Part shown: piece by piece, positions 1-34,230 of the stretch
How positions within the stretch are numbered: the stretch's first letter is position 1
Layout of the letters: every line of letters starts with the position of its first letter
Source: an uncultured Prevotellaceae bacterium
GTDB lineage: Bacteria > Bacteroidota > Bacteroidia > Bacteroidales > Muribaculaceae
Length of the DNA: 64,000 bases
Direction: 5' to 3'
Assembly: GCA_947167995.1 (NCBI GenBank)
Contig: CAMVKS010000004.1
Span: 5,604 to 69,603 of the forward strand
Position numbers and translations under genes: made by a program
Notes under the pieces: generated by a model
Seen by the model: only the letters and a program-made list of their open reading frames with translations
The model's database searches: none
What the model was told of the DNA's origin: nothing

Positions 1-211
1 GCAAAACTCTCGACTGGTGACACCTGCAAAGTACCGCACGACGTTGATGCGCACGACTATTCTGCGTCGTTCAGTTAACCGATTATTTGACAACATCTAT
101 GCTCCTCTGTCTATAACGGGGCAATTTGTCGTTGAGCGACTTACCCACCCCTTACGTGAACCAAGAACTGTTAACTATTATGTAATAACACTTTGTCGAC
201 TATTGTGTTAG

Positions 212-327
212 CCTACGGAGTCCAAGGTGTTTAATTTTTCAGCTCCATTACTCCAAGACTCCGTAGAATATATCTCCGTAGAGAGTTGTAGGTGATTAGA
301 CGTTGAAACGGAACACCACTCAAAGTC
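212..327 (-). repeat. Solo copy of the ~114-bp palindromic 'ychF-tail' repeat, inverted relative to the arrays at 25.6 and 31.1 kb
   Basis: Reverse complement reads GACTTTGAGTGGTGTTCCGTTTCAACGTCTAATCACCTACAACTCTCTACGGAGATATATTCTACGGAGTCTTGGAGTAATGGAGCTGAAAAATTAAACACCTTGGACTCCGTAGG, which aligns along its length with the array unit. Confidence 0.95.
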
Positions 328-19446: not shown

Positions 19447-22400
19447 ATGAAGAAATATATACTTTTACTGGCAGCAGCCGTAGTAGCTGGTTTCTCGCTT
19501 CAGGCAAAGACTACCGATGAGTTCCGCATTTATCTGAATCCCGGTCATGGCAGCTATGGTGCCAACGACCGTCCAATGCCAACGATAGGACATCCCCACA
19601 CTGGCCAGCTCAATGCCGAGGGCACTACATGGATGGACACCGACACCCTGGGCTTCTATGAAGGACGTGGCACGCTGCCACGAGCTTTTGGAATTAAGGA
19701 TTATCTTAAATCGGTGGGGGTAAAAAGCGAGAACATCGTAATGAGCCGTGAGGCAAACGGACCATGGCCTTACACCACACCAAATAGCGACTATGACCCC
19801 AATCACATCTACAACAAAAACCTTGCCGACATCTGCGAGGAGGTAGAAGAGGGCAACTTCGACATGTTCATCTCGTCGCACTCCAATGCTGCTACCGACG
19901 GCACAAGCACCAATTATCCGCTGATTCTCTATCGCGGCTACGACACTGGCACCACTGGTCCTGCTGGTTACAACGGACCAGGTGTTGCCGGCAGCGACGA
20001 CATGGCACGCACCGTGTGGCCATTCCACCACATGGGCGAGATTGATCCACAGAGCCACTACAGCGCAACAAGCATGAACGTGCGTGGCGACATCAGCTTC
20101 TATGGCAGCTACAGCACTGCCACACGCAACAATGGCAAGCAGTACAGCGGCTACCTGGGCGTGCTCAAGCATGGCGTTCCAGGCTATCTGAACGAGGGCT
20201 TCTTCCACACCTATCAGCCAGCACGTCACCGCGCTCTGAACTTCGACTACGACCGTCTTGAGGGTATCCGCGAGGCTCGCGGTGTTGCCACCTACTGGGG
20301 TTTCAACCTCACAGGCAAGGGCGAGATTGCCGGTACCGTGAAGGACTTGCACGAGAAAATCGTTGACAACCTCTACAAGTATGCCTACGGCACCGACGAC
20401 CAGTGGCTGCCCATCAATGGCGCACAAGTAGTTCTCAAGAAGAACGGCACCGAGGTTGCTACCTACACCGTCGACAACGAGTGGAACGGATTCTTTGCTT
20501 TCTTCGACCTCGAACCAGGCAACTATACTCTTGAGGCTACCGCCCAGGGCTATAAGCTGCTCGATGAACCCATCGCAGCTACCGTTACCGCCAACAACAC
20601 CTGCTTCTCTTTCATCAAACTTGAGAACGAAAACTACGTTCCCGAGGAGGAAGTTTATGAGAACTATCCCGACCCAGCACAGCCCGCTTATCTCAAGCTT
20701 CCTGGCGAGATTGTCTTTGCTCAGGACGAGGGTACTACCTACGACGGCATACTGGGCAATGTGGCGCAAGCATTGCAGTATGGCGACTCAACTATCGTTC
20801 TCTCGCACGAGGGCAAGCTTGCTCACCTCTACCTTGTTGACAACAACACCAAGCAGGTAGTCAAGGAGCTCAGCACCGAGGGCATCTTCAGCATGGACCA
20901 GCCCAACTTCTACAACCAGATTGGTGCTATCGCTCTGAGTGCCGACCACAAGCTCGTGGGTGTGAGCGCAGTGCGCACCAGCTTCAACAACGACTACACC
21001 GATGGCTACCCACGCGGAACAATGTATGCTTACTACTGGAACGACTTTGACGCAACTCCTACCGAGTGGTTCACGAGTCAGTACTCTTCTAACTTCTACA
21101 GGGCCGACGCCGGATTAGGTCTCGCAGTGAGTGGCCCCGTCAAGGAGGCTGTGGTTTGCGTTCCTATTGCTACTAATAGTACCTCTACACGTGGCGTGCG
21201 GCCTGCATTCTTCGTTATTTCCGAAGGCAATGTAGTAAGCACCAGCCGTGCCAACGCCAATAACACTATCACTCTGGTAGAACTTGGTGACCCATTGGCT
21301 ACCGAAGGCAACTTCGGCAATTATGACGTTGCCAACTATGGTACAATCAAGGTGGCAGTATCGCCATTCAACGACCATGCTTTCATCATTGGTGGCTCAA
21401 AATCTGGCAAGCTCTATGAGTTCCCAGTTACTACCGACGGTGGCATTCCCGATTGCAACGTGTTTAATGCCGATACCGAGCTGCTTGGCAACGGCATGCA
21501 AATCTTCAAGTATGCAGGTCACAAGCTCTTGGTTGCTCCTTACGGAACCAAGAACGACGTGAAGGGCATCAAGGTTTATGACATCACCGATGGCCTGGCA
21601 AATGCTAAGCTCGTGAACACAGTCAATACTGACATCAACACAGATAAGGCTATCACTGCCAACACCGCCGACTTCGCATGGGCCGGTGCTAAGGTCATTG
21701 GTGAGGACATCCACGCTTATCTCGCTGGAAGCGACGCCAACATCGTGAAATTTGCTACCGACGGCGTTGAGCAACCAGTGGTTAAGGGTATCTACGCCTA
21801 CGACCTGAACTACAACCTCGAAGGCGACAACTACACCTTCACTTTCAAGGCTAACGACAATGCCAATGAGGGTTACATCACCTTCCGCGATGTCGACACC
21901 AACGAGGTTCTTGCTACATTCCCACTTTCTAACGTTGTGACTGGTGCCAACGAAATCACCATTCCAGTAGCTGACCTTCCCTCTGTTCCCGATGGTGAGC
22001 AAGGTTGCATCAAGATGCATTGGGAAATCACTCTCGTGGGCGACCCAATCGCACGCATCAACAAGCTTAACAATCCCGATGACTTCACATTTAGCCGCAT
22101 TGGTAATGCTGTTGACGACAATCCCGAGAGTCCTTACTTCGGACGCTTCTACCTCGTTAACCGCATCGGCTCAAGCAACACCAGCAATGCTATCTATGCC
22201 TACACTCCCGAATGGCAACAGATTGGTGGCCCAATCAGCGGTGAGTACACCCTTGGCAACCCATTCCGTCTGGATATCGACCAGAATGGTACTGTTTACC
22301 TTGCCAACTGGGCCGACGGTGCTCGCTCGGGTGTGTTCAAGCTCAATCCCGAGACATTGAGCGGCGACCTTGAGCCATTCTTTATTGGCTCTCACGCCAG

Positions 22401-23283
22401 TGATGGTACTATCACCAACGACGCTGGTCAGATGATGTGTACTTCCACTCCTTCGGTATTCGTTACAGGCACAGGTGCCAACACTCACATGTATTGCCAC
22501 CTTGAGGATGCCAACAACGACATCTCTCAATACAACATTGGTAACGAGGATGGCACAATCATGGAGAACTGGACCGAAGCACCAACCCGCATGTGGGGCA
22601 TTGGCGCTAAGCTCATCAGTACTCATGCAGCAGTGATTGGCGAGACTGAGGATGGTGGTATCTGGGTAGTTCAGAACCGCAGCGCCGGCAACAACAACTC
22701 AAGTGTACCTTCTATCATCTATGTAAACCCAGAGGGACAAATTGTTTATAATAGTGGTGACGTCGACAACCCAATCCACGAGCACCTCACTGGTACTCAA
22801 TACTGCGCAGGTGCTATCAGCGCCGACGGTACCGAGCTTGTTGTTAACCAACCCGACGGAACTCTCAAGTTCTTTGAGATTCAATATGGCAGCGATGGCG
22901 TTCCCGCTTTGAACTACAAGTATGAATACAAGCACGGTGTAGGCAACCTGGTTACTCAAATCAACTATGACTACGCTGGTAACCTGTTCGTTTCGGCCGG
23001 CAAGCTGGCTATCCTGTCAATGCCTACCGAGAACAACACCCACACTACTCCTGCCAAGAGCGAATATATCGTGATGACTGGCGAGGAGCAGCAAGTTATT
23101 CCAGGCGACGTGAACGGCGACGGTGATGTGAACTCAGTGGACATCACTATCCTCTACAACTACCTCCTCAATGGTGACACCGAGGGCATGGTCAACGGCG
23201 ACCAGAGTGGCGACGGTGAAATCACCTCGGTAGATATTACAACTGTTTACAACGTAATCCTCGGCAGTAAGAAAAGAAAATAA
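19447..23283 (+). CDS. Large secreted N-acetylmuramoyl-L-alanine amidase (Amidase_3-like) with C-terminal dockerin
   Basis: YLNPGHG, FYEG, ISSHSNA and LNEGFFH metal/catalytic motifs; carboxypeptidase-regulatory-like Ig segment; terminal GDVNGDGDVNSVDITILYNYLL...GDQSGDGEITSVDITTVYNVIL. Confidence 0.85.
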   Translation: MKKYILLLAAAVVAGFSLQAKTTDEFRIYLNPGHGSYGANDRPMPTIGHPHTGQLNAEGTTWMDTDTLGFYEGRGTLPRAFGIKDYLKSVGVKSENIVMSREANGPWPYTTPNSDYDPNHIYNKNLADICEEVEEGNFDMFISSHSNAATDGTSTNYPLILYRGYDTGTTGPAGYNGPGVAGSDDMARTVWPFHHMGEIDPQSHYSATSMNVRGDISFYGSYSTATRNNGKQYSGYLGVLKHGVPGYLNEGFFHTYQPARHRALNFDYDRLEGIREARGVATYWGFNLTGKGEIAGTVKDLHEKIVDNLYKYAYGTDDQWLPINGAQVVLKKNGTEVATYTVDNEWNGFFAFFDLEPGNYTLEATAQGYKLLDEPIAATVTANNTCFSFIKLENENYVPEEEVYENYPDPAQPAYLKLPGEIVFAQDEGTTYDGILGNVAQALQYGDSTIVLSHEGKLAHLYLVDNNTKQVVKELSTEGIFSMDQPNFYNQIGAIALSADHKLVGVSAVRTSFNNDYTDGYPRGTMYAYYWNDFDATPTEWFTSQYSSNFYRADAGLGLAVSGPVKEAVVCVPIATNSTSTRGVRPAFFVISEGNVVSTSRANANNTITLVELGDPLATEGNFGNYDVANYGTIKVAVSPFNDHAFIIGGSKSGKLYEFPVTTDGGIPDCNVFNADTELLGNGMQIFKYAGHKLLVAPYGTKNDVKGIKVYDITDGLANAKLVNTVNTDINTDKAITANTADFAWAGAKVIGEDIHAYLAGSDANIVKFATDGVEQPVVKGIYAYDLNYNLEGDNYTFTFKANDNANEGYITFRDVDTNEVLATFPLSNVVTGANEITIPVADLPSVPDGEQGCIKMHWEITLVGDPIARINKLNNPDDFTFSRIGNAVDDNPESPYFGRFYLVNRIGSSNTSNAIYAYTPEWQQIGGPISGEYTLGNPFRLDIDQNGTVYLANWADGARSGVFKLNPETLSGDLEPFFIGSHASDGTITNDAGQMMCTSTPSVFVTGTGANTHMYCHLEDANNDISQYNIGNEDGTIMENWTEAPTRMWGIGAKLISTHAAVIGETEDGGIWVVQNRSAGNNNSSVPSIIYVNPEGQIVYNSGDVDNPIHEHLTGTQYCAGAISADGTELVVNQPDGTLKFFEIQYGSDGVPALNYKYEYKHGVGNLVTQINYDYAGNLFVSAGKLAILSMPTENNTHTTPAKSEYIVMTGEEQQVIPGDVNGDGDVNSVDITILYNYLLNGDTEGMVNGDQSGDGEITSVDITTVYNVILGSKKRK

Positions 23284-24008: not shown

Positions 24009-24192
24009 TTAGGTTTTAGCGGGTGAAAAAAATCACAGTTGCAAATATAACACCTTTTCTTTTAAAAAACAAAACACTTTTAAAAACCATTTTTTGTGAT
24101 GACTGAGCTTGGAAAAACTTTTTTCACCATCAAAAGGAAACATTCTCCCCCTCTTTGCGTTTATATATACAGGAAATAAAGAATTATTTGAC

Positions 24193-25665
24193 ATGAAACA
24201 CTTTCTACTCACTGCTTGGTGCTTGCTGATGTTGATGGTGGCGCCAAGTGTAAACGCGACAACTATGCACAGTAACGACAACTATAAAATCATGGTCATC
24301 AGCGACCCGCACTTGCTGTCACCTTCACTATACGACGATGGCAATGCGGCGCGGCAGCTCGACAAGAGCGATATGAAGATGGTGATTCAAAGCGATTACA
24401 TCATGCACTCGCTGATCGACGAAATCATAAAGGCTAAACCGCAACTGCTGCTCATCACAGGCGACCTCACTTTCAACGGTGAGAGGGCAAGTCATGAGCG
24501 GCTGGTCGAGCATTTGCAGCGACTTGAGCAGGCTGGGGTGCGCACCTTCGTTATCCCAGGCAACCACGACGTGATGTGCCCTTACAGTAAGCAATACAAG
24601 GGTGATGAGTCTAAGGCTGTTGCCAATGTCACTAGCGAGGATTTTGCCGCGATTTACGCTAATTATGGCTACGGCAACGACTCAAATCGTGACCCTAACT
24701 CTCTGAGTTACATTTGTGAGCCAGTTCCTGGACTGATGCTACTAGGCATCGACAGCAACATTTATGCAGCGAGTCGTGATGAAGAAGTTGTGTATCACAC
24801 CGACGGCACCGTTAAACCCGAGACTATAGAGTGGGTAAAGCAGCAGCTCGCTCAAGCCAAGCAGTCTGGTAAGCGAGTGATAGCTATGATGCACCACCAT
24901 CTGGTGGAGCACATCGATGGTGAAGCACTATTGTTGCCTAACTACATAGCATCTAACCACGACGAGGTGGCACAAGTGCTGCGTGATGGTGGAGTGAAAG
25001 TCGTTTTCACCGGTCATCTTCACATCACAGACGCAGCCACCGAGGATGGAATTACCGATGTTTCGACTGGTTCGGCGTCGACCTATCCCATTGCCATGCG
25101 TACGGCGACTTTTGACTCATCGCACGCCTCATTGAGTATCGATACTCGCATCTTTGACAGCCCCAGTAACTGTGTTCTCAGTCAGGGCCGTGCCAAGATT
25201 GAAAACAGTGCGCCAGCTTTGGCAGGCATCATCTCACGACGACTGTGGGACAAAATCAGCCCACGACTGGAACAGATGAAAGAATTGTTTGCCGAGGAAG
25301 GTGTCGATGTTTCGAAGGTGCCCAACAATGCTGTCGAGCTGTCGGCTTTGCTATTGAGACATCTGCAACAGCCTCTCACTCAAAGCCTCTTGATGGTAGA
25401 GTGCGGAGGTGAGGACCCCAACCAGGCCGCCGCTATCATCGAAGCTGTGAAACAAGGACTGCACGGCATGGTGGCCGACATCTTCCCCGACAATGCCGAC
25501 GAGATAACCGATTTCTTGATTGAGAACGCTATGCCACGAGTGGAACCAATGCTGCGCAGCGCGCTGGAAGACATCAACCAGGTGGGCACTCCACAGCAAT
25601 CCCACACCCACGACCATAGTCTAAGGATTAGACTTGTCGACCAACACCTCTCTACGGAGCTATAA
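24193..25665 (+). CDS. Secreted calcineurin-like metallophosphoesterase
   Basis: SDPH, TGDLT, PGNHD, HH and GHLH motifs; start moved to MKHFLL (signal peptide); last codons lie inside the repeat array. Confidence 0.9.
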   Translation: MKHFLLTAWCLLMLMVAPSVNATTMHSNDNYKIMVISDPHLLSPSLYDDGNAARQLDKSDMKMVIQSDYIMHSLIDEIIKAKPQLLLITGDLTFNGERASHERLVEHLQRLEQAGVRTFVIPGNHDVMCPYSKQYKGDESKAVANVTSEDFAAIYANYGYGNDSNRDPNSLSYICEPVPGLMLLGIDSNIYAASRDEEVVYHTDGTVKPETIEWVKQQLAQAKQSGKRVIAMMHHHLVEHIDGEALLLPNYIASNHDEVAQVLRDGGVKVVFTGHLHITDAATEDGITDVSTGSASTYPIAMRTATFDSSHASLSIDTRIFDSPSNCVLSQGRAKIENSAPALAGIISRRLWDKISPRLEQMKELFAEEGVDVSKVPNNAVELSALLLRHLQQPLTQSLLMVECGGEDPNQAAAIIEAVKQGLHGMVADIFPDNADEITDFLIENAMPRVEPMLRSALEDINQVGTPQQSHTHDHSLRIRLVDQHLSTEL

Positions 25666-26221
25666 TCTACGGAGTCTTGGAGTAATGGAGTTGAAAAATA
25701 AAACTCCTTGGACTCCGTAGACTTTGAGTGGTGTTCAGCTTCAACATCTAATCACCTACAACTCTCTACGGAACTATATTCTACGGAGTCTTGGAGTAAT
25801 GGAGTTGACAATAAAAACTCCTTGGACTCCGTAGACTTTGAGTGGTGTTCAGCTTCAACATCTAATCACCTACAACTCTCTACGGAACTATATTCTACGG
25901 AGTCTTGGAGTAATGGAGTTGAAAAATAAAACTCCTTGGACTCCGTAGACTTTGAGTGGTGTTCAGCTTCAACATCTAATCACCTACAACTCTCTACGGA
26001 ACTATATTCTACGGAGTCTTGGAGTAATGGAGTTGACAATAAAAACTCCTTGGACTCCGTAGACTTTGAGTGGTGTTCAGCTTCAACATCTAATCACCTA
26101 CAACTCTCTACGGAACTATATTCTACGGAGTCTTGGAGTAATGGAGTTGACAATAAAAACTCCTTGGACTCCATGACTCCGTAGACTTTGAGAGGTGAAC
26201 TCAGTAGACTTCAAATCACCT
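25644..26221 (+). repeat. Tandem array of a 114-bp palindromic unit (4 full units plus partial ends)
   Basis: TTGGACTCC recurs at 25708, 25822, 25936, 26050, 26164 (period 114); internal units differ only at GAAAAATAAAA vs GACAATAAAAA. Confidence 0.98.
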
Positions 26222-28018
26222 TAGAATAAGCTCGTAAAGCAGGGTTATATCGGCGGCCGTGAAGTATCCGTCGCCATCGACATCTATATAATAGATTTCA
26301 CCATCACTGAGAAAGTAGTCGTACATGGCAGTGAGATCGGCAGCAGTCAATACTCCATCCTTGTTGATATCGGCTCCACTACCCCACTTGCTGTCCAGCC
26401 AAGAAACCTTTTTAGATATCAAATCAAGATACTGCTGAGGCTTCTCGGGACCATGACTGCTGGCATATAAGGGCCAGCGCAGATAGTCATGAAACTCGGC
26501 TTGTGAAATCATCTCTCTCCACCGCCATGCATGCCTGATGACCTGGTCGAGAATGTGATTGTCGCAGAACTCACGCCACACAAGCCTCACCTCGTGCTGG
26601 AATCGTGGAAACTTGATTATCTCTTTTATCCACAAGAACGGATAATGCGTGCCGTAGTCATAGATGAAATGGTCGCCAGTGGTTTTGTCTTGAAAATAGC
26701 TATTGTCAAAGTCCCATACAGGGCCAAATTTCAGGGGTTCGTCGCCCAAGTCCTTATACAGATACAGGCTGCCCGAGAACGACTCCACATTCTCCAATAT
26801 CTCGTGAATGACATAGAAACGTGCCAGGGTGTGGATGTCGAGCAGACTTTCCCAGCCGCGGTCGCTCTTGTTTGACACATAGACGCAGCTGTCGGCACGA
26901 AACAGCAGGTTGTGGATGTAAGAGCGCTGAACAGACGATAACTGCTCGGGCGATTGAGCTATAAAAGTAAACAGAGGATTGGCTGGGTCATTGTTCTGGT
27001 GTTGCTCTATCACCTTCACGCCGTCATTGGCAAGCTCAAGCAGCCAGCCACCTGTCACATTCTCGGGGATGGTCTCCATGTCGGCTTGCTCCATGATGTC
27101 GACACGGCCACTCTCCACACGTATTTTCTCGCACAGGAAGTACAGTCCCTGATACTCCCCGTTGAGAACCAGCTCCACCGGCACCTCGGTTGGGGTGTAG
27201 GGCATGTTGAGCAGCCGGCTCAGGGTGAATCCTGTGGTGTTGCGCAGATAGCCGCTATAATCCTCGTTGTGTGCCAAGAGCACAAAATGCCGGCTCTTCT
27301 CAAGGCCTAAGGGAGACTGTTTAGATGCAAATTTCAGTCTATAGGGCTTTTTGTCGGAATGCAACCAAGTCCAGTGTCCACGACCTTTCACCTCAATGTC
27401 GAGAGGCTCATCCTCGCTGCCAAGCGATGAAAACCCGTCGTCAATCCACAACGTGCCGCCGATGTAATATTCTTTACTCGAGATTGTTGCCGAGTTCTGT
27501 GTGTTGAGATACACCACTGGCAGAGTGCCCGAAACGGTCACCGTGTAGCTGAAGTCGGGGCGCCAATAACCATCGCTCAGCTGTGCGTCGTTCAATGGGT
27601 AGTAAATCCATTTATCCGACTTGTTCCAGTCGATAAACATTTTCGATTTGAGACTTGTGCGTCTCAACTGTTCATCACATGCCTCGCTCAAGCTATCGAG
27701 AAACATGCTCAAGCGTGTGTAATAAGTGCCCGACGGCACATCGGCATCCACAAAGGTGAAATAACTCAATCCGTAAAGAGGGCTATCGATAGTGGCTTTC
27801 CACCAACCGCCCTTCACATCCTGAGTCATGTCGTAAACTCTGGTAAATTCATTGGTCACATTGCCCACAACCATCTTCACATGCGAGTACTTGACCTTGC
27901 TGTTGTCGAAATAATAGTCACCCTGTGCGACATCAAGCGCGAGCATGTCAAGGGTGCCCACACTCATCAGTGCAAGCATCAGCACAAGACCTACCTTTAT
28001 GTTCACAGGATGTTTCAT
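26216..28018 (-). CDS. CotH-family secreted kinase with C-terminal dockerin (copy 1)
   Basis: KGRGHWTW...KKPYRLKF, LYFLCEKI, GPVWDFDNS; terminal DINKDGVLTAADL / DVDGDGYFTAADITLLY. Confidence 0.9.
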   Translation of the reverse strand: MKHPVNIKVGLVLMLALMSVGTLDMLALDVAQGDYYFDNSKVKYSHVKMVVGNVTNEFTRVYDMTQDVKGGWWKATIDSPLYGLSYFTFVDADVPSGTYYTRLSMFLDSLSEACDEQLRRTSLKSKMFIDWNKSDKWIYYPLNDAQLSDGYWRPDFSYTVTVSGTLPVVYLNTQNSATISSKEYYIGGTLWIDDGFSSLGSEDEPLDIEVKGRGHWTWLHSDKKPYRLKFASKQSPLGLEKSRHFVLLAHNEDYSGYLRNTTGFTLSRLLNMPYTPTEVPVELVLNGEYQGLYFLCEKIRVESGRVDIMEQADMETIPENVTGGWLLELANDGVKVIEQHQNNDPANPLFTFIAQSPEQLSSVQRSYIHNLLFRADSCVYVSNKSDRGWESLLDIHTLARFYVIHEILENVESFSGSLYLYKDLGDEPLKFGPVWDFDNSYFQDKTTGDHFIYDYGTHYPFLWIKEIIKFPRFQHEVRLVWREFCDNHILDQVIRHAWRWREMISQAEFHDYLRWPLYASSHGPEKPQQYLDLISKKVSWLDSKWGSGADINKDGVLTAADLTAMYDYFLSDGEIYYIDVDGDGYFTAADITLLYELILR

Positions 28019-28025
28019 CGCCTTG

Positions 28026-28033
28026 CAAAGATA
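28026..28033 (-). promoter_or_regulatory. Bacteroidota -7 box for CotH copy 1
   Basis: TATCTTTG on the - strand, 8 nt from the annotated ATG. Confidence 0.55.
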
Positions 28034-28265
28034 GTGTTCCCCCTTTTATTATAAACTCATAGATAATCAAATTATTGCCACTTCCTCTATTTTGGAGAGG
28101 TCTCTCAAGACTCCAAGACACCTAAACTCCATAGAAGTTTTATTCAAGGCGCAGAGCATTGTAATTACATGGCAATTTGTGTGAAACTTCTTCCTGCAGG
28201 GGGGTGTTTTGATTAGTTTAAGTTGGTGAGCTTACTCAAAATTTGAAAACCTGCGAGATTTTGTG

Positions 28266-28273
28266 TACTTTTG
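28266..28273 (+). promoter_or_regulatory. Bacteroidota -7 box for the C69 dipeptidase
   Basis: TACTTTTG 28 nt upstream of the ATG. Confidence 0.6.
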
Positions 28274-28300
28274 CAGTGCTTTTAAAAGAAAAATGCTACT

Positions 28301-29929
28301 ATGAAACTAAATTTCTTTGCGACAATAGCACTGTCAATGGCTTTGCTGCCTGCTGTGGCTCAAGTGGATGAGACAACTCCTGAAGGGCGCGCACGCCTTT
28401 CGTGCACCAGCATCATGGTGGGCAAGAACGCCAGCACCGACGGCTCGGTGATAACCTCCCACACCTGCGACTCATGGTACCGCACATGGATGACCATGAC
28501 ACCGGCACGCGACTATGAGAGCGGCGCGATGACCGCCATCTACGAGGGCCGCATGCACACACAAAGCGCCAGCGACAGCACCAAGCTCTATGTTAAGGGC
28601 ATGATTCCACAGGTGCGACACACGTTCCGCTTTCTCGACACCTCCTATCCCTGCTTGAACGAGAAACAGGTGGCGATGGGCGAGACCACCATTGGCGGCC
28701 GTGACACCTTGCGCAACAAGAATGGCATGTTCTATATCGAGGAGCTGCAGCGCATAGCTCTGGAACGATGCTCTACCGCAAGAGAAGCCATTGCCTTGAT
28801 GGGCAGTCTGGCCGAGCAGTACGGCTACTGCGACAGCGGCGAATGTCTCACCGTAGCCGACCCCAACGAGGTGTGGATCTTTGAGATATTTGGCGCAGGT
28901 CCCAAGAAAGTGGGAGCCGTGTGGGCTGCCGTGCGCATCCCCGACGACGAGATTGCCGTCTCGGCCAACATTTCGCGCATCGGCACCCTCGACCTCAACG
29001 ACAAGGATCATTACATGGCCTCGGCCAACGTCAAGGAAGTCGCCCGCCAGCTCAAGCTGTGGGACGGAAAAGAGGAGTTCAACTTCTTCAAAGCCTATAG
29101 CGGCGAGAACTACTTCCATGAGAAGAAAAACTACAGCGTGCGTGAGCACTATATCATGAGTGTGCTGGCGCCATCGCTCAACCTGAGCGACACAGTGGCA
29201 TGGCTGCCGCTGAGCGTGAAACCCGATGCAAAGGTGAGTCCCGAGCAGGTGATGCAGTTGCTGGGAAGCTACTACGAGGGTTCCGACAAGAACCTGAGCG
29301 GACGTCACATGATTCCCAACCCTAAACGACGCGACAAGGACGGCAACCTCGTGGAGAATGAGCCCGATAGCATAGTATCGCCATTCAGCAACCCATGGAT
29401 GCGCCCCGACGAGATAAACATGTACTACGCCATGGGCGACTCGGCGATGAAGAACATACGCACCGTGAGCGTGCCCTGGTGTGCCTACAGTACTGTCATC
29501 CAGTGTCGCTCATGGTTGCCCAACGAGATAGGCGGCGTGGCTTGGGTGGCCCTCGACAATCCTGGCGAGAGTCCACGATTCCCAATCTTCGCAGGCACTA
29601 CCGAGCTCCCCAAGATGTTGCAGGTGTGTGGCCAGCACAGCGACCGCGACGATGCCGCCCTGTGGCACTACCGCAAGGCCAACCGTCTCGCCACCGTGCG
29701 CTGGGGCAAATTCCGCTCTATAATAGAGCCGCAACGCGACTACTTCACCGAGAAGGGCATGAGAGAACTGCACTATGTTGAACAGACCTGGCAGAGACTC
29801 AACGCCACCACCCCCGACAAGGCACAATCAATGCTCAACGGATATGTCGCCGACTTCTTCGGAGCCACTATCTTGCGCTGGGACGAAATCGCACGCGACC
29901 TGTGGCGACAAAACTGGACTGGATTTTAA
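28301..29929 (+). CDS. Peptidase C69 family dipeptidase, secreted
   Basis: SCTSIMVGKNASTDGS N-terminal nucleophile motif, LNEKQVAMGETT; signal peptide ending LPAVA|Q. Confidence 0.9.
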   Translation: MKLNFFATIALSMALLPAVAQVDETTPEGRARLSCTSIMVGKNASTDGSVITSHTCDSWYRTWMTMTPARDYESGAMTAIYEGRMHTQSASDSTKLYVKGMIPQVRHTFRFLDTSYPCLNEKQVAMGETTIGGRDTLRNKNGMFYIEELQRIALERCSTAREAIALMGSLAEQYGYCDSGECLTVADPNEVWIFEIFGAGPKKVGAVWAAVRIPDDEIAVSANISRIGTLDLNDKDHYMASANVKEVARQLKLWDGKEEFNFFKAYSGENYFHEKKNYSVREHYIMSVLAPSLNLSDTVAWLPLSVKPDAKVSPEQVMQLLGSYYEGSDKNLSGRHMIPNPKRRDKDGNLVENEPDSIVSPFSNPWMRPDEINMYYAMGDSAMKNIRTVSVPWCAYSTVIQCRSWLPNEIGGVAWVALDNPGESPRFPIFAGTTELPKMLQVCGQHSDRDDAALWHYRKANRLATVRWGKFRSIIEPQRDYFTEKGMRELHYVEQTWQRLNATTPDKAQSMLNGYVADFFGATILRWDEIARDLWRQNWTGF

Positions 29930-29964
29930 TATATAGCTCATAGTTGATCGTCGCAAGCACAAAC

Positions 29965-30000
29965 TTAAACACTTAACATTTACTACTTAACACTTAATAA
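29965..30000 (+). repeat. TTAACAC-type heptamer tract immediately upstream of ychF (family A)
   Basis: TTAAACAC TTAACAT TTACTAC TTAACAC TTAATAA, then TT-ATG. Confidence 0.75.
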
Positions 30001-30002
30001 TT

Positions 30003-31103
30003 ATGGCACTTCAATGTGGTATCGTGGGACTTCCCAACGTGGGCAAGTCAACATTGTTCAACTGCTTGTCGAATGCTAAGGCACAATCGGCAAATTTTCC
30101 CTTCTGTACAATAGAGCCCAACGTGGGCGTAATCACCGTTCCCGACGAGCGACTTAACAAGCTTGCCGAGCTGGTTAATCCTGCCAGGGTGGTACCCACG
30201 ACAGTGGAAATTGTCGATATTGCCGGCCTGGTGAAAGGAGCAAGCCGAGGTGAGGGCCTGGGCAACAAGTTCCTTGCCAACATACGCGAGACCGATGCCA
30301 TCTTGCACGTGCTTCGTTGCTTTGACGACGACAACATCACCCACGTGGATGGTACTGTCGACCCCGTGCGCGACAAGGAAGTGATCGACACCGAGCTCCA
30401 GCTGCGCGACCTCGAGACCATTGAGAGCCGCATAGGCAAGGTGGCTAAGATGGCAGCTGCCGGAGAGCGCGATGCCAAGATGCAGCACGAGGTACTCAAG
30501 CGATATCAGGAAGTGCTGAGCCAGGGCAAGAGCGCACGCAGCGTCACCCTCGAGACTAAAGACGAGCAGAAATTTGCCCACGACTTGTTCCTGTTGACCA
30601 ACAAGCCAGTGCTCTACGTGTGCAACGTCGACGATGCCAGTGCCGTAACTGGCAACAAATATGTGGATGCAGTGCGTGAAGCCGTCAAGGAAGAGAATGC
30701 CGAGATTCTCGTTGTGGCAGCGCAGACCGAGAGCGACATCGCCGAGCTCGAGACCTATGAGGAGCGACAGATGTTCCTCGAGGAAATAGGACTGAAGGAG
30801 AGCGGTGTGAACCGATTGATCAAGGCTGCCTACAAGCTGCTCGACCTTGAGACGTTCCTCACCGCTGGACCCAAAGAGGTGCGCGCCTGGACTTTCCGCA
30901 AGGGCAGCAAGGCACCACAGTGCGCCGGCGTGATTCACACCGACTTCGAGCGTGGCTTCATTCGTGCCGAAATCATAAAATATGAGGACTACATCCACTA
31001 TGGCAGCGAGGCGGCAGTGAAAGAGGCTGGCAAAATGCACATCGAGGGCAAAGACTACGTGTTCCAGGACGGCGACATCGTGGTGTTCCGCTTCAACGTC
31101 TAA
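30003..31103 (+). CDS. ychF: Redox-regulated ribosome-binding ATPase YchF
   Basis: GIVGLPNVGKSTLFN, NFPFCTIEPN, DIAGLV, GLGNKFL, C-terminal TGS domain ending DGDIVVFRFNV. Confidence 0.99.
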   Translation: MALQCGIVGLPNVGKSTLFNCLSNAKAQSANFPFCTIEPNVGVITVPDERLNKLAELVNPARVVPTTVEIVDIAGLVKGASRGEGLGNKFLANIRETDAILHVLRCFDDDNITHVDGTVDPVRDKEVIDTELQLRDLETIESRIGKVAKMAAAGERDAKMQHEVLKRYQEVLSQGKSARSVTLETKDEQKFAHDLFLLTNKPVLYVCNVDDASAVTGNKYVDAVREAVKEENAEILVVAAQTESDIAELETYEERQMFLEEIGLKESGVNRLIKAAYKLLDLETFLTAGPKEVRAWTFRKGSKAPQCAGVIHTDFERGFIRAEIIKYEDYIHYGSEAAVKEAGKMHIEGKDYVFQDGDIVVFRFNV

Positions 31104-31347
31104 TCACCTGCACATCTCTACGGAGATAAACTCTACGGAGTCTTGGAGTAATGGAGTTGAAAAATAAAAACTCCTTGGACTCCGTAGGCTTTGAATGGTA
31201 TTCCGCTTCAACGTCTAATTACCTACACCTCTCTACGGAGATTTATTCTACGGAGTCTTGGAGTAATGGAGTTGAAAAACAAAAACTCCTTGGACTCCAT
31301 GACTCCGTAGACTTTAAGCAGTGAACTCCGTAGACTTTAAATCACCT
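31080..31347 (+). repeat. Two-unit array of the same repeat, starting inside the ychF 3' end
   Basis: ychF tail at 31080 and a second tail ATGGTATTCCGCTTCAACGTCTAA at 31195; same CTACGGAGTC/GACTCCGTAG hairpins; ends at the CotH-2 stop codon. Confidence 0.97.
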
Positions 31348-33117
31348 TAGAATAAGGTTGTAAAGGGCGGTGATATCGGCGGCAGTAATTTCTCCGTCGC
31401 TGGTTATATCGCTTGTACTTAGGAAAGTATCATTACCATTAAGTAAATAATCGTAGAGGGTGGTGATGTCGGCAGCAGTGACGATTCCGTCGCAGTTCAC
31501 ATCGCCATTTGCTACGCTCCACTGCTCGTTGAGCCAGTTGTATTTGCTTTGAAAATAGCTCTTGAAGAGGTCACGGTCATAGTAAAGTTCGGCATTACCA
31601 TAATCGGGCCACCTTAATGCATCAAAAATTGCCGCTTGGTAAATCTTATTAATAAAACTGTCAATAAAGCTATCTGTCATCTCCTTGTAATGTAGCGAGA
31701 CATATCGCCGCCAATGTTTCTTAACTATCTGCTGGAAATGCGGAAATTTTGCAATCTCGCCAATCCATGTCTGCGTGGTCATAGGCTCCTCGTAAATAAA
31801 CTTGTCGGTGATGCCACGACAGAAAGCGTTGCCGAAATCCCACACTGGCCCGAACAAAATCTTCGAGCTTTCTCCTTTTTCCTTATGCCAGAAGCAGCTG
31901 CCATGGAACGACTCGGTGTCGTCGAGCAACTCCTGTACGATATAGAAGCAAGCCAATGTATCGGGGTCGATATATGTCTCCCAACTGTTGTCGGTCTTGT
32001 CGGTGACATAGATTGCTGAATCTACAATATTTATTAAGTCTAGGAGATATTCTCGCTGGGGGTAGCTCAGGTGTTCGGGTGACTTGTAGGTCAAGTTAAT
32101 CGCCTGTCCGTTGCTCTCAACGGTTTGAATCTGCTCCTCTTCATAGTAATTGTCAATCTCAACCAGCCAGCCACCAGTAATCTTGAGACTGTCGGTCTCA
32201 TAATCGGCCTGCTCCGTCACATTTACGCGGTTGGGTTCTACACGCACCGTTTCGGTTAGCATATAAAGCCCAATATAGTCGCCATTGAGCACCACCTCTA
32301 CTGGTCGCTGCGACGGTGTCCACGCAAGCCCCAACTGCCTGCTCAACTCATATCCCACAGCGTGACGCAGAAAACCCAGATAGTCATCGGCATTGGCAAT
32401 CAATGCCCAATGCTTATTGCGTTTCATGCCCAGCAGTGCTGTTTTCTTGTCGAGCTTGATGCGGTAAGGCTTCTTGTCGTAGTATTCCCATGTATAGTTT
32501 CCGCGCCCTCTAATCTGCATCAGATTTGGAGCATCGGCAGCCCCCACATTGTCAATGCCCTCGATGCCCATGTTGTCAATATAATAATAGGCATAAATGT
32601 ATTCATCTTTTGATGTTATGGGCATAGAATCCTCGGTGTTGATGAACATCACAGGCAAAGTCCCAGAGTAGGATATTGGCTGACCGAGCATCAACCAGAT
32701 TCCCGATGTCCAATTATTTCCACCAGTTGGTGTGAACACCCACCCTACCGGGATAGGGATGTTGAAAGTCGTGGTGTGCTTTCCGTTTAGCGAGATGATT
32801 CTGGTAATCATGCTCGAAGGATCCTCGTTATAAAACCCATCGGGTAACGAAGTCTCGACAAAGCAATAGCAGTGCATTCCTGTCACAGTCTCGGGGATTG
32901 TGATACTCCAAAGACTGTCCTCCTCATTTGTCATTGTCACCACATAGATCTCGGAATTAGAATAGTTGCCATAGACAAACTTCACAACGGAGTAATTTGT
33001 CAGCGAATTGTTGAAATAAAACTTACCTTTGGGAATGTTGAGCGCACTAACAGTAAAACCAGCCAATGCCACCAATAACACACAGAAGAATATAATCAGT
33101 TTTTTCATCACAATCAT
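31342..33117 (-). CDS. CotH-family secreted kinase with C-terminal dockerin (copy 2)
   Basis: RGRGNYTW...KKPYRIKL, LYMLTETV, GPVWDFGNA; terminal GDVNCDGIVTAADITTLY / DITSDGEITAADITALY. Confidence 0.9.
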   Translation of the reverse strand: MIVMKKLIIFFCVLLVALAGFTVSALNIPKGKFYFNNSLTNYSVVKFVYGNYSNSEIYVVTMTNEEDSLWSITIPETVTGMHCYCFVETSLPDGFYNEDPSSMITRIISLNGKHTTTFNIPIPVGWVFTPTGGNNWTSGIWLMLGQPISYSGTLPVMFINTEDSMPITSKDEYIYAYYYIDNMGIEGIDNVGAADAPNLMQIRGRGNYTWEYYDKKPYRIKLDKKTALLGMKRNKHWALIANADDYLGFLRHAVGYELSRQLGLAWTPSQRPVEVVLNGDYIGLYMLTETVRVEPNRVNVTEQADYETDSLKITGGWLVEIDNYYEEEQIQTVESNGQAINLTYKSPEHLSYPQREYLLDLINIVDSAIYVTDKTDNSWETYIDPDTLACFYIVQELLDDTESFHGSCFWHKEKGESSKILFGPVWDFGNAFCRGITDKFIYEEPMTTQTWIGEIAKFPHFQQIVKKHWRRYVSLHYKEMTDSFIDSFINKIYQAAIFDALRWPDYGNAELYYDRDLFKSYFQSKYNWLNEQWSVANGDVNCDGIVTAADITTLYDYLLNGNDTFLSTSDITSDGEITAADITALYNLILR

Positions 33118-33132
33118 ATATATGTTAGTATT

Positions 33133-34230
33133 TTATTTCAGCACTTGTTTATATACATCAAGCGTCTGCTTGGCGATTCTATCCCAGTTGTAGTCGCTCA
33201 GGTCGTAATGTTGTAATTGAAAATCCTTGTTAAGAGCATCTTTGATGCCCTCGGCGAGGGCATCGCTGTCGGCCACTTCCACATAGTTGTCCTTGGGGAG
33301 TTCAATGAGGTGTGTGGCAGGAATGTCGCTCACCACAAGTGGCAACTGATAGCTCATCGCCTCGAGTAACACCAAGGGGAACCCCTCGTTCACCGACGAG
33401 AGCACATAGAGGCGCGCGTGGCTATAGAGCTGTCGCAGGTCCTCGCCCTGGGTGAACCCGGTGAAGATAACTTTATCGTTCCAGTCGAGCTGCTTGAGCA
33501 TCTTGAAATAGCTTGTGTCGTGGTCGCTGGCACCGGCAATGACCAAATGCTTCACTTCGTCGAGCTTGTTGACAGCCTCGACAAGATACTCAAAGCCTTT
33601 CTCGGGCGTGAGCCTTCCCACCGAGAGGATGAAGTCGCGCGGTTCAATCTCGAGTCGTCGCAGCAGTCCCGTGCTTCGACCTATTTTTGTCTTGTTGATG
33701 CCATTGGGGATAAATACCGACTTCGCCAGCACTTTCTCTCCGAGTTTCTCGCGCTGGAAACTGTTGACAAAGATTATCTTGCTTGCGCAGTTGAGCGAGA
33801 TCTTCTCCGAAATCTTCAGGATGGCGCGGCTCACCCTTCCCCACTTCTTGTGCTCGTAGTTGGGGCTGTGATAGGTGAGGATGATGGGGATGCGAAAGAG
33901 CTTGATGAGCGGAGCAAACATGCCTGGCCCAATGTTGTGGATGTGCACGGCGTCGGGCCGGTGGAAGATGATGTGGATAGTGGCAAGGAAGGTGTGAATC
34001 ACCGCCTCCAGTCCCTTGATGCGGGTTGAAGGCAGGTCGACATACTCGGTGTTCTTGAACTTGCGTGCCGAGACCTCGGTGAGGTAGGGCCGGCGTCGGT
34101 AGATGCGCAGGCGGTAGTTCTTGTGCATGCGAGTGTAGATGTTCTCACAGTGCATCTCCACACCACCCTGCACGCCTGGAAATCCTCTAACCCCTATTAC
34201 CGAAATTACCTTCATTGCATCAAGCGACAA
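33133..34230 (-). CDS. Glycosyltransferase family 4
   Basis: GVRGFPGVQGGVE N-terminus, VGRLTPEKG, EGFPLVLLEAM. Confidence 0.93.
   Translation of the reverse strand: MSLDAMKVISVIGVRGFPGVQGGVEMHCENIYTRMHKNYRLRIYRRRPYLTEVSARKFKNTEYVDLPSTRIKGLEAVIHTFLATIHIIFHRPDAVHIHNIGPGMFAPLIKLFRIPIILTYHSPNYEHKKWGRVSRAILKISEKISLNCASKIIFVNSFQREKLGEKVLAKSVFIPNGINKTKIGRSTGLLRRLEIEPRDFILSVGRLTPEKGFEYLVEAVNKLDEVKHLVIAGASDHDTSYFKMLKQLDWNDKVIFTGFTQGEDLRQLYSHARLYVLSSVNEGFPLVLLEAMSYQLPLVVSDIPATHLIELPKDNYVEVADSDALAEGIKDALNKDFQLQHYDLSDYNWDRIAKQTLDVYKQVLK

Follow-up and report, generated by a model that had tools for sequence, protein, structure and literature searches.

A hairpin repeat carrying the end of ychF and the shared 3' junction of two CotH-dockerin genes in a gut Bacteroidales bacterium

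The window analysed here is a stretch of 64,000 nucleotides from an uncultured Prevotellaceae bacterium (GTDB family Muribaculaceae; GenBank assembly GCA_947167995.1, contig CAMVKS010000004.1, positions 5,604 to 69,603 of the forward strand). It contains two genes for CotH proteins with a C-terminal dockerin, termed CotH1 (26216-28018, minus strand, 600 aa, clade-A CotH kinase-like) and CotH2 (31342-33117, minus strand, 591 aa), both of which abut at the 3' end an array of an extragenic hairpin repeat; the second of these arrays separates CotH2 from the convergent housekeeping gene ychF (30003-31103, plus strand). The arrangement is best explained, with a probability of about 70%, by a history in which the hairpin captured the tail of ychF, expanded and was copied together with dockerin codons onto the 3' end of CotH1, an old paralog of CotH2. 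The shared junction of the two genes is classed as a product of gene conversion and modular recombination.

The likeness of the two junctions, which lie 5 kb apart, is real and far above chance. Positions 26158-26230 and 31284-31356 align without gaps with five mismatches in 73 nt (93% identity), and both stretches reach the minus-strand coding ends CTT ATT CTA AGG TGA (LILR-stop). This match had been described in the initial annotation and was reproduced by alignment, together with the remark that the rest of the two genes is far more diverged: compared with the 93% at the junction, the proteins are 37% identical and the codon-aligned DNA 50%, the last 15 codons reaching 80% in DNA. Among the 73 C-terminal dockerin tails of the whole genome, those of CotH1 and CotH2 match one another best over the last 48 nt (81%; next best 46–52%), the pair ranks in the top 0.2% of all dockerin-tail pairs and an LILR end is found in these two only. 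The form GGACTCCATGACTCC, which bears an octamer discussed below, occurs within the window only at 26166-26185 and 31292-31311, that is, in the two terminal repeat units.

The repeat unit is a composite of a nested hairpin core of ~65 nt and a copy of the last 21–24 nt of ychF. Its tail segment reads GTGGTGTTC(A/C)GCTTCAAC(A/G)TCTAATCACCT and corresponds to the last eight codons of ychF (31080-31103, VVFRFNV-stop; gene assigned with Pfam) plus the first bases of the 3' spacer. Copies of the tail start at 25731, 25845, 25959, 26073 and 31198, and one stands inverted at 296-316. Because ychF ends in the same GTGGTGTTCCGCTTCAAYGTNTAA in relatives without a downstream hairpin (G020, G008, G017, G005, G003, G019, G002 and G014), ychF is the donor and the repeat the recipient. 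The closest named relatives of this ychF are 86–88% identical and include a Sodaliphilus sp. metagenome-assembled genome.

Array 1 (25640-26215, no strand assigned) consists of four internal units of 114 nt that are 96–100% alike, each made up of a hairpin shortened by 8 nt and a ychF-tail copy (25731-25751, 25845-25865, 25959-25979 and 26073-26093), followed by a terminal canonical unit with its hairpin at 26122-26185; Tandem Repeats Finder reported 25640-26172 with a period of 114, 4.7 copies and 96% matches. Array 2 (31104-31341, likewise unstranded) consists of one internal unit, with an 8-nt-deleted hairpin at 31132-31188 and the second ychF-tail copy at 31198-31218, and then a terminal canonical nested hairpin that includes 31292-31311 (Tandem Repeats Finder: 31081-31298, period 115, 1.9 copies). 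A solo 114-nt unit (210-327, minus strand; ychF-tail copy at 296-316, 8-nt-deleted hairpin at 212-267) was matched by blastn and nhmmer at C4:5811-5930 and sits ~31 kb from ychF.

The octamer ACTCCATG had been regarded as an extra sequence restricted to terminal units. The restriction holds within the window, but the octamer is not an addition: it belongs to the canonical form of the element. Either ACTCCATG or ACTCCAAG is present in the stand-alone copies, and with the octamer the stem is a perfect 18 bp. Since the stand-alone copies contain it, the internal array units are the derivatives, in which 8 nt were deleted between two direct repeats of GACTCC, and the normal form persists in the terminal units.

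The state before duplication is visible in other assemblies. Contigs of sister strains were found in independent assemblies via exact YchF and GT4 glycosyltransferase proteins (the YchF protein is identical), and two of them, L162 and L163, show ychF-TAATCACCT..., one canonical hairpin, ...GTAGACATTGAGTGGTGAATTCCGTAGACTTTAAACTACCT and then a CotH gene ending LYDILFR-stop. The same single-element layout is found in a different species, G015, and in all three the single hairpin is followed by GAGTGGTGAATTCCGTAGAC and by a CotH gene with an ILFR-stop end. At the ychF locus of G015 (L002, G015:C20, ~1930-1995) the element has its inner hairpin flipped relative to the present genome with its flanks in the same orientation, as expected from recombination between the 18-nt inverted arms. 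The single-element alleles already show a GTGGTG microhomology, with one site in the ychF tail (ATCGTGGTGTTCCGC) and one just after the hairpin (GAGTGGTGAATTCC), and the array unit boundaries fall exactly there: the 114/115-nt unit spans from the GTGGTG in the ychF tail to that just past the hairpin, so that the last codons of ychF are included in every unit. Slippage or unequal exchange at GTGGTG would account for the period of 114/115 nt as well as for the captured ychF tail, and the array may have arisen in this way. The number of units varies, with one or two at ychF among sister strains; at CotH1, two or three hairpin cores were counted in sister strains versus five in the present genome. 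A 129-aa PDDEXK_3 gene lies within the ychF array between two hairpin units in L156 (8357-8746; also L160 and L165); the end of this gene, from the last codons (AAAGATTGA) into the bases beyond, matches that of a GT2 gene beside a hairpin on contig C35 of the present genome.

The phylogeny places CotH1 and CotH2 as old paralogs of different clades and not as recent duplicates. Both gave matches above the Pfam cut-offs to CotH (PF08757; 98.6 and 103.9 bits) and Dockerin_1 (PF00404; 29.5 and 37 bits). In a maximum-likelihood tree of 26 CotH proteins, based on a search of six genomes, CotH1 belongs to clade A (support 100/100), which includes orthologs from five species at 62–66% identity, the neighbours of ychF in G001, G006, G015 and G057 form the adjoining group B, and CotH2 belongs to a third clade C (support 100/99). 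The gene order of the window is fully conserved in G057 (dockerin protein, metallophosphoesterase, CotH-A, C69 peptidase, ychF, CotH-B, GT4), and the two-gene layout is therefore old. The proposal that the array was copied over 5 kb together with CotH, or with the dockerin tail only, thus stands for the array and the extreme tail and fails for the whole gene, given the different clades and the relatives that each gene has elsewhere.

The end of CotH1 is derived. The five clade-A orthologs end LLGN, LLGSSE, LLDY, LLGL and LLGIGNNSDH, no hairpin was found downstream of any of the five, and G057 has a plain spacer of 75 nt between CotH-A and the metallophosphoesterase gene. An R-stop end abutting the element is present at the ychF locus in G015 and in sister strains. 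As the orthologs have neither the tail nor the hairpin and array 1 contains ychF-tail copies, the last codons of CotH1 and its whole 3' spacer were overwritten from the ychF locus. The replaced tail (26216-26260, minus strand) comprises at least the last 4 codons plus the stop, which match CotH2 and not the CotH1 orthologs, and probably ~13–15 codons. The marks of ectopic gene conversion are all present: a short tract of high identity in diverged genes, its derived state relative to the orthologs and a donor labelled by the ychF-tail copies. As judged from the sequences, transfer from the ychF locus to CotH1 is certain for the array units and likely for the terminal junction and the LILR tail.

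The history would have started with a REP-like (repetitive extragenic palindromic) nested hairpin in the 3' spacer between convergent ychF and a CotH-dockerin gene. After expansion of the array, units, the terminal hairpin and the last 4–15 codons of the dockerin at that locus would have been pasted onto the 3' end of CotH1 by ectopic recombination of the gene-conversion type, replacing the native end and spacer of CotH1. The same event would have pushed the reading frame of the metallophosphoesterase gene on the other side (24109-25665, plus strand; Pfam) into the first unit of array 1, inside which its last codons and stop now lie; the G057 ortholog ends earlier, before the plain 75-nt spacer, and a 490-aa gene was called in a sister strain. 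The hairpin region and conserved dockerin motifs may have served as homology anchors for the exchanges.

A comparable case is gene conversion between pilE and pilS of Neisseria, where a conserved non-coding repeat (Sma/Cla) stands 3' of each paralogous copy and coding segments are transferred non-reciprocally between nearby copies. In contrast to pilE/pilS, there are two or three copies here and no archive of silent cassettes, and the exchange is seen as a population polymorphism rather than as programmed high-frequency variation. To our knowledge, no dedicated initiation signal has been described for exchange at the CotH locus.

Exchange is also seen within the species, in the slot between ychF and the GT4 glycosyltransferase gene (33133-34230, minus strand; Pfam). 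The flanks of the sister contigs are 97.7–99.98% identical in DNA, and on either side of the slot they match the window at 97.7–99%, the match picking up again exactly at 33134. Three alleles were distinguished: a 587-aa clade-B gene with an ILFR-stop end (L156, L162, L163, L167, L170 and L171); CotH2, in the present genome and L157; and the CotH2 body at 94–96.5% identity, sometimes frameshifted (L168, L169, L172 and L173). Clade-B genes hold the slot in four related species as well as in some sister strains. CotH2 itself is mixed. Its body (31540-33117, minus strand) is of clade C, being ~70% identical to clade-C genes versus ~37% to those of clade B, and its dockerin module (31342-31513, minus strand) is closest to clade-B dockerins, B-type both in sequence and in indel pattern, with 78% DNA identity to the slot dockerin of the sister strains.

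The boundary between body and dockerin is a crossover zone (31514-31539, minus strand), defined by a three-way alignment of L168/L172, the present genome and L156. L168 and L172 are 100% identical to CotH2 up to AACTGGCTCAACGAGCAGTGGAGCGT, which encodes WLNEQWS, and thereafter 100% identical to the L156 clade-B allele through the dockerin in the region aligned; on L172, whose contig reaches farther, the identity to L156 continues into the hairpin. On the 5' side, L167 (type I) and L168 (type II) share the GT4 gene, the spacer and ATGATGAAAAAAC and diverge immediately after it. On these alignments the slot is built from at least two exchangeable modules, a CotH body and a dockerin, with joints at the start codon, between body and dockerin, and in the hairpin region, and homologous exchange between diverged alleles, not gene duplication, is supported. 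The description of the CotH-dockerin genes as cassettes in the initial annotation is therefore apt in that CotH bodies of different clades and dockerin modules occupy the slot between near-identical flanks; the transposon-like mechanism attached to it is not supported. In two CotH2-type alleles (L168:5613-7301 and L172:1562-3328) the gene is split into open reading frames of 148 aa and 410–435 aa, which suggests a frameshift; the slot gene may be dispensable or phase-variable.

The domain order, CotH followed by a type I dockerin, resembles that of modular proteins of the cellulosome type. Papers on anaerobic fungi and on clostridial cellulosomes name CotH alongside dockerin; the host here, in contrast, is a Bacteroidales (Muribaculaceae-like) gut bacterium with ~105 dockerin matches. 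Sister genes carry, in place of the dockerin, a C-terminal domain of the type IX secretion system (T9SS). Two CotH paralogs in related species, L129 (G001:C137) and L130 (G057:C4), are ~50% identical to CotH1 and end in such a T9SS-type domain (...KVTTYSDGSRKSEKIVR), not in a dockerin, so two sorting tags alternate within the CotH family. The 3' spacers of CotH genes in the genus (the ychF spacer of L003/L004, L120 and L131-L136) frequently contain short tandem repeats with a period of 7–9 nt, for example TCTAGAnnn (five copies), TTCAGAYT and GATGAGR, and unrelated repeats occupy the same position in different species.

The hairpin reads TCTACGGAGTCTTGGAGT AATGGAGT, a loop and then ACTCC TTGG ACTCCA(A/T)GACTCCGTAGA; each arm is composed of three 8-nt GGAGT modules, and the whole is nested within a second pair, TCTACGGAG/CTCCGTAGA. 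The predicted fold of 31225-31347 (−53.6 kcal/mol, z = −8.5) has inner stems of 11+6+6 bp and an outer stem of 9–10 bp. Searches with blastn and an nhmmer profile located the hairpin at ~10 loci in the 2.9-Mb draft genome of 121 contigs, a count in which the draft assembly may under-represent repeats: 210-327 and the two arrays in the window, and contigs C35, C45 (two), C68, C96 (two) and C118. A gene end immediately precedes every one of these loci; among the genes concerned are pgk, a GT2 gene and genes with T9SS tails or dockerins. The arm sequence is found in 14 of 61 genomes of the genus, likewise as stand-alone intergenic hairpins.

The everyday role of the hairpin is probably that of an RNA structure at the 3' end, as a putative terminator or stabilizer; such a role is plausible. 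G001 has a canonical terminator at the equivalent position behind the gene of the C68 locus. No Rfam family matched the window at the gathering threshold, the sole match with E < 1 being a chance match to a miRNA. An analysis of structure and covariation in 20 family copies recovered the outer stem alone with covariation near zero, in a MAFFT alignment that does not respect the shifted 8-nt modules.

Set against known elements, the hairpin is classed as an extragenic palindrome that is REP-like and of a new sequence type. It shares with REP, BIME and REPIN elements short palindromic units ending in GTAG, a position mostly just downstream of genes (all ~10 loci here follow a gene, as short imperfect palindromes), a patchy distribution among strains and species and tandem clusters that include flanking DNA. 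REP clusters are known to be reiterated in tandem with flanking DNA segments, and small REP families are allowed (PMC3733652). The GTAG tag of REPs is, by definition, an unpaired tetranucleotide (PMC3733652), and in the predicted fold here GTAG/CTAC is paired (TCTACGGAG / CTCCGTAGA). Nor was a cognate RAYT gene flanked by the repeat found, which is a second defining feature of REPs: none of the three Y1_Tnp genes above the Pfam cut-off is close to a copy. The survey reported GTAG repeats in Proteobacteria, Cyanobacteria, Chloroflexi and the PVC group and not in Bacteroidetes (PMC3733652). The arms of 8-nt GGAGT modules further set the element apart from REPs and REPINs, and the ~10 loci per genome may do so too, as against the tens to thousands of copies typical of REPs.

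Several points weigh against the proposed history. GTGGTG is a common hexamer in the genome, and the microhomology is weak evidence when taken alone; the left edge of array 1 has no clear homology or microhomology; and slippage alone does not account for the perfect AATCACCT that flanks array 2 on either side. No hairpin was called as a terminator by a consensus terminator scan, which looks for a GC-rich stem and the T run of a Rho-independent terminator; the terminator role is putative. A recombination-promoting role of the hairpin would be read from position alone. Finally, LILR-stop is found at CotH1 in all sampled strains and at the ychF slot only in the present genome and L157, where the other alleles end ILFR-stop; a later back-copy from CotH1 to CotH2 is thus possible. 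In that case the array units would have moved from ychF to CotH1 first, and the LILR tail and terminal hairpin would have been born at CotH1 and copied back in the lineage of the present genome and L157. This order of events is possible but rather unlikely: the entire CotH2 dockerin differs from that of the sister strains (78%), not just its last 45 nt, so an extra event would be needed, and at the ychF slot the ancestral state already has an R-stop end joined to the element (G015, L162).

Less probable still is that a tyrosine (Y1/RAYT-like) transposase mobilized the hairpin as a non-autonomous, REPIN-like element and left the junctions as by-products of copying with flanking DNA. The GTAG-ended palindromes downstream of genes, the tandem clusters including flanking DNA and the five Y1_Tnp matches in the genome would agree with such an element. 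Of those five, however, the three genes above the Pfam cut-off have no CTACGGAG or CTCCGTAG motif within 3 kb. The GTAG lies base-paired in the stem, the genome has only ~10 loci, and the copies carry different host-gene tails, a better fit to homology-driven copying.

Little remains of the explanation first proposed, in which a miniature transposon inserted between the abutting stops of ychF and CotH with an 8-bp AATCACCT target duplication, after which the array and a whole CotH gene were duplicated 5 kb away. Miniature inverted-repeat transposable elements (MITEs) that overlap gene ends include the Correia elements of Neisseria, ERIC of enterobacteria and RPE of Rickettsia; these small non-coding elements can form RNA hairpins and extend into, or even provide, the final codons of adjacent genes. 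The canonical copies belong to a dispersed family, their 18-nt inverted arms TCTACGGAGTCTTGGAGT / ACTCCAAGACTCCGTAGA are perfect, as in the terminal inverted repeats of a MITE, and AATCACCT stands where it had been placed, at 31102-31109 and 31340-31347 at the two ends of array 2 and again at 26214-26221. It also recurs once per internal unit of array 1 (25750, 25864, 25978 and 26092) and in the inverted solo unit (290-297), and array 2 carries AATTACCT at 31217; being repeated in every unit, it is a periodic part of the unit and not merely a flank. In the single-element alleles the right-hand copy is imperfect (AACTACCT or TACTACCT). The C118 copy shows that the family element itself ends in TTTAAATC, so that this sequence belongs to the element, and the ACCT before CotH falls outside it.

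The predicted empty site (...AACGTCTAATCACCTTAGAAT...), with the ychF and CotH stops abutting, is absent from the 133 genomes of the genus and the metagenome contig collection that were searched. Two matches with three mismatches, in G004 and G058, proved to be unrelated loci. The hairpin-less relatives G001 and G006 have a different spacer of ~110 nt with a TCTAGA repeat of 9-nt period, and G014 has no CotH gene behind ychF. At the stand-alone C68 locus, which was considered for an empty site or target duplication, relatives keep the coding flank only; unrelated hairpins or repeats stand in place of the spacer, with no definable boundary. In contrast to a MITE, no target-site duplication, empty site or parent insertion sequence with matching ends was found for the element, and its copies carry pieces of previous host genes, which precise transposition would not produce. 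With CotH genes of different clades that each have relatives in other species, insertion with an 8-bp duplication is largely refuted and very improbable.

An IS-like element with the ends CCTGTTTTCGTCAATGGGACACC... and CCTGTTTTCGTCACATTTTTTAGAC... breaks seven contigs of the genome (C29, C33, C35, C40, C58, C75, C84 and C118 are listed). Its paired flanks, identical over 35–65 nt on both sides, are unusually long, variable duplications, each with a hairpin, one of which is the GGAGT hairpin behind pgk.

The genome contains ~105 Dockerin_1 matches above the Pfam cut-off, those in the window lying at 19447-23283, 26216-28018 and 31342-33117. Among the ~100 dockerin genes the element stands at the stop codon only of CotH1, CotH2 and C45:13810-14676, in the last case 20 nt past the stop; in a fourth gene, C96:916-2379, it lies 155 nt downstream. 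Dockerin genes account for three of the 12 gene ends that abut the element versus ~4% expected (binomial P ~0.01, or ~0.07 if the CotH pair is counted as one event). The genome-wide association of dockerin genes with the repeat anticipated earlier is therefore not borne out, with three or four of ~100 genes carrying it and an enrichment that is not significant once the CotH pair is counted once. Independent insertions behind both CotH genes by an element that targets dockerin 3' ends, for which the same three of ~12 ends and the C45 gene could be cited, can be dismissed as very unlikely, since ~96% of dockerin genes are without the element, the array 1 units contain the ychF tail and hence originated at the ychF locus, and the junction homology passes the family boundary into coding sequence.

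On contig C96 (475-2676), non-coding DNA downstream of the dockerin-ended gene (916-2379) retains a remnant of a T9SS C-terminal domain, and the hairpin comes next. Over a block of 265 nt (2412-2676), identity to an upstream paralog's tail and hairpin (475-738) reaches 95%, compared with 75–78% for the gene bodies. From its sequence, the arrangement looks like the remains of a T9SS-to-dockerin tag swap.

Gene tails appear to have travelled with the hairpin in three or four separate cases, namely the ychF tail, the LILR tail, the T9SS tail on C96 and possibly a KD-stop tail shared by the GT2 and PDDEXK_3 genes. Because of these cases the GGAGT hairpin is tentatively suggested as a recombination hot spot, for example a fragile palindrome that breaks and is mended with other copies as the template; the idea is doubtful at present. 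The earlier proposal that the repeat drives the duplication or shuffling of dockerin genes is retained in part: exchanges do occur at the slot, and the hairpin as their driver is speculative and rather unlikely.

The locus provides a clean and datable example of an extragenic hairpin repeat that took up part of a housekeeping gene, was propagated by homology-driven copying and rewrote the C-terminus of a neighbouring secreted protein, alongside the modular rebuilding of dockerin-tagged CotH proteins within a species of gut Bacteroidales. A hot spot, if real, would repeatedly overwrite the 3' ends of neighbouring genes, swapping C-terminal tags (dockerin or T9SS) and whole CotH cassettes and so diversifying surface proteins. 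If the hairpin actively promotes exchange, it would offer a simple, transposase-free route to surface-protein diversification; if not, the locus would represent ordinary but well resolved repeat dynamics and gene conversion.

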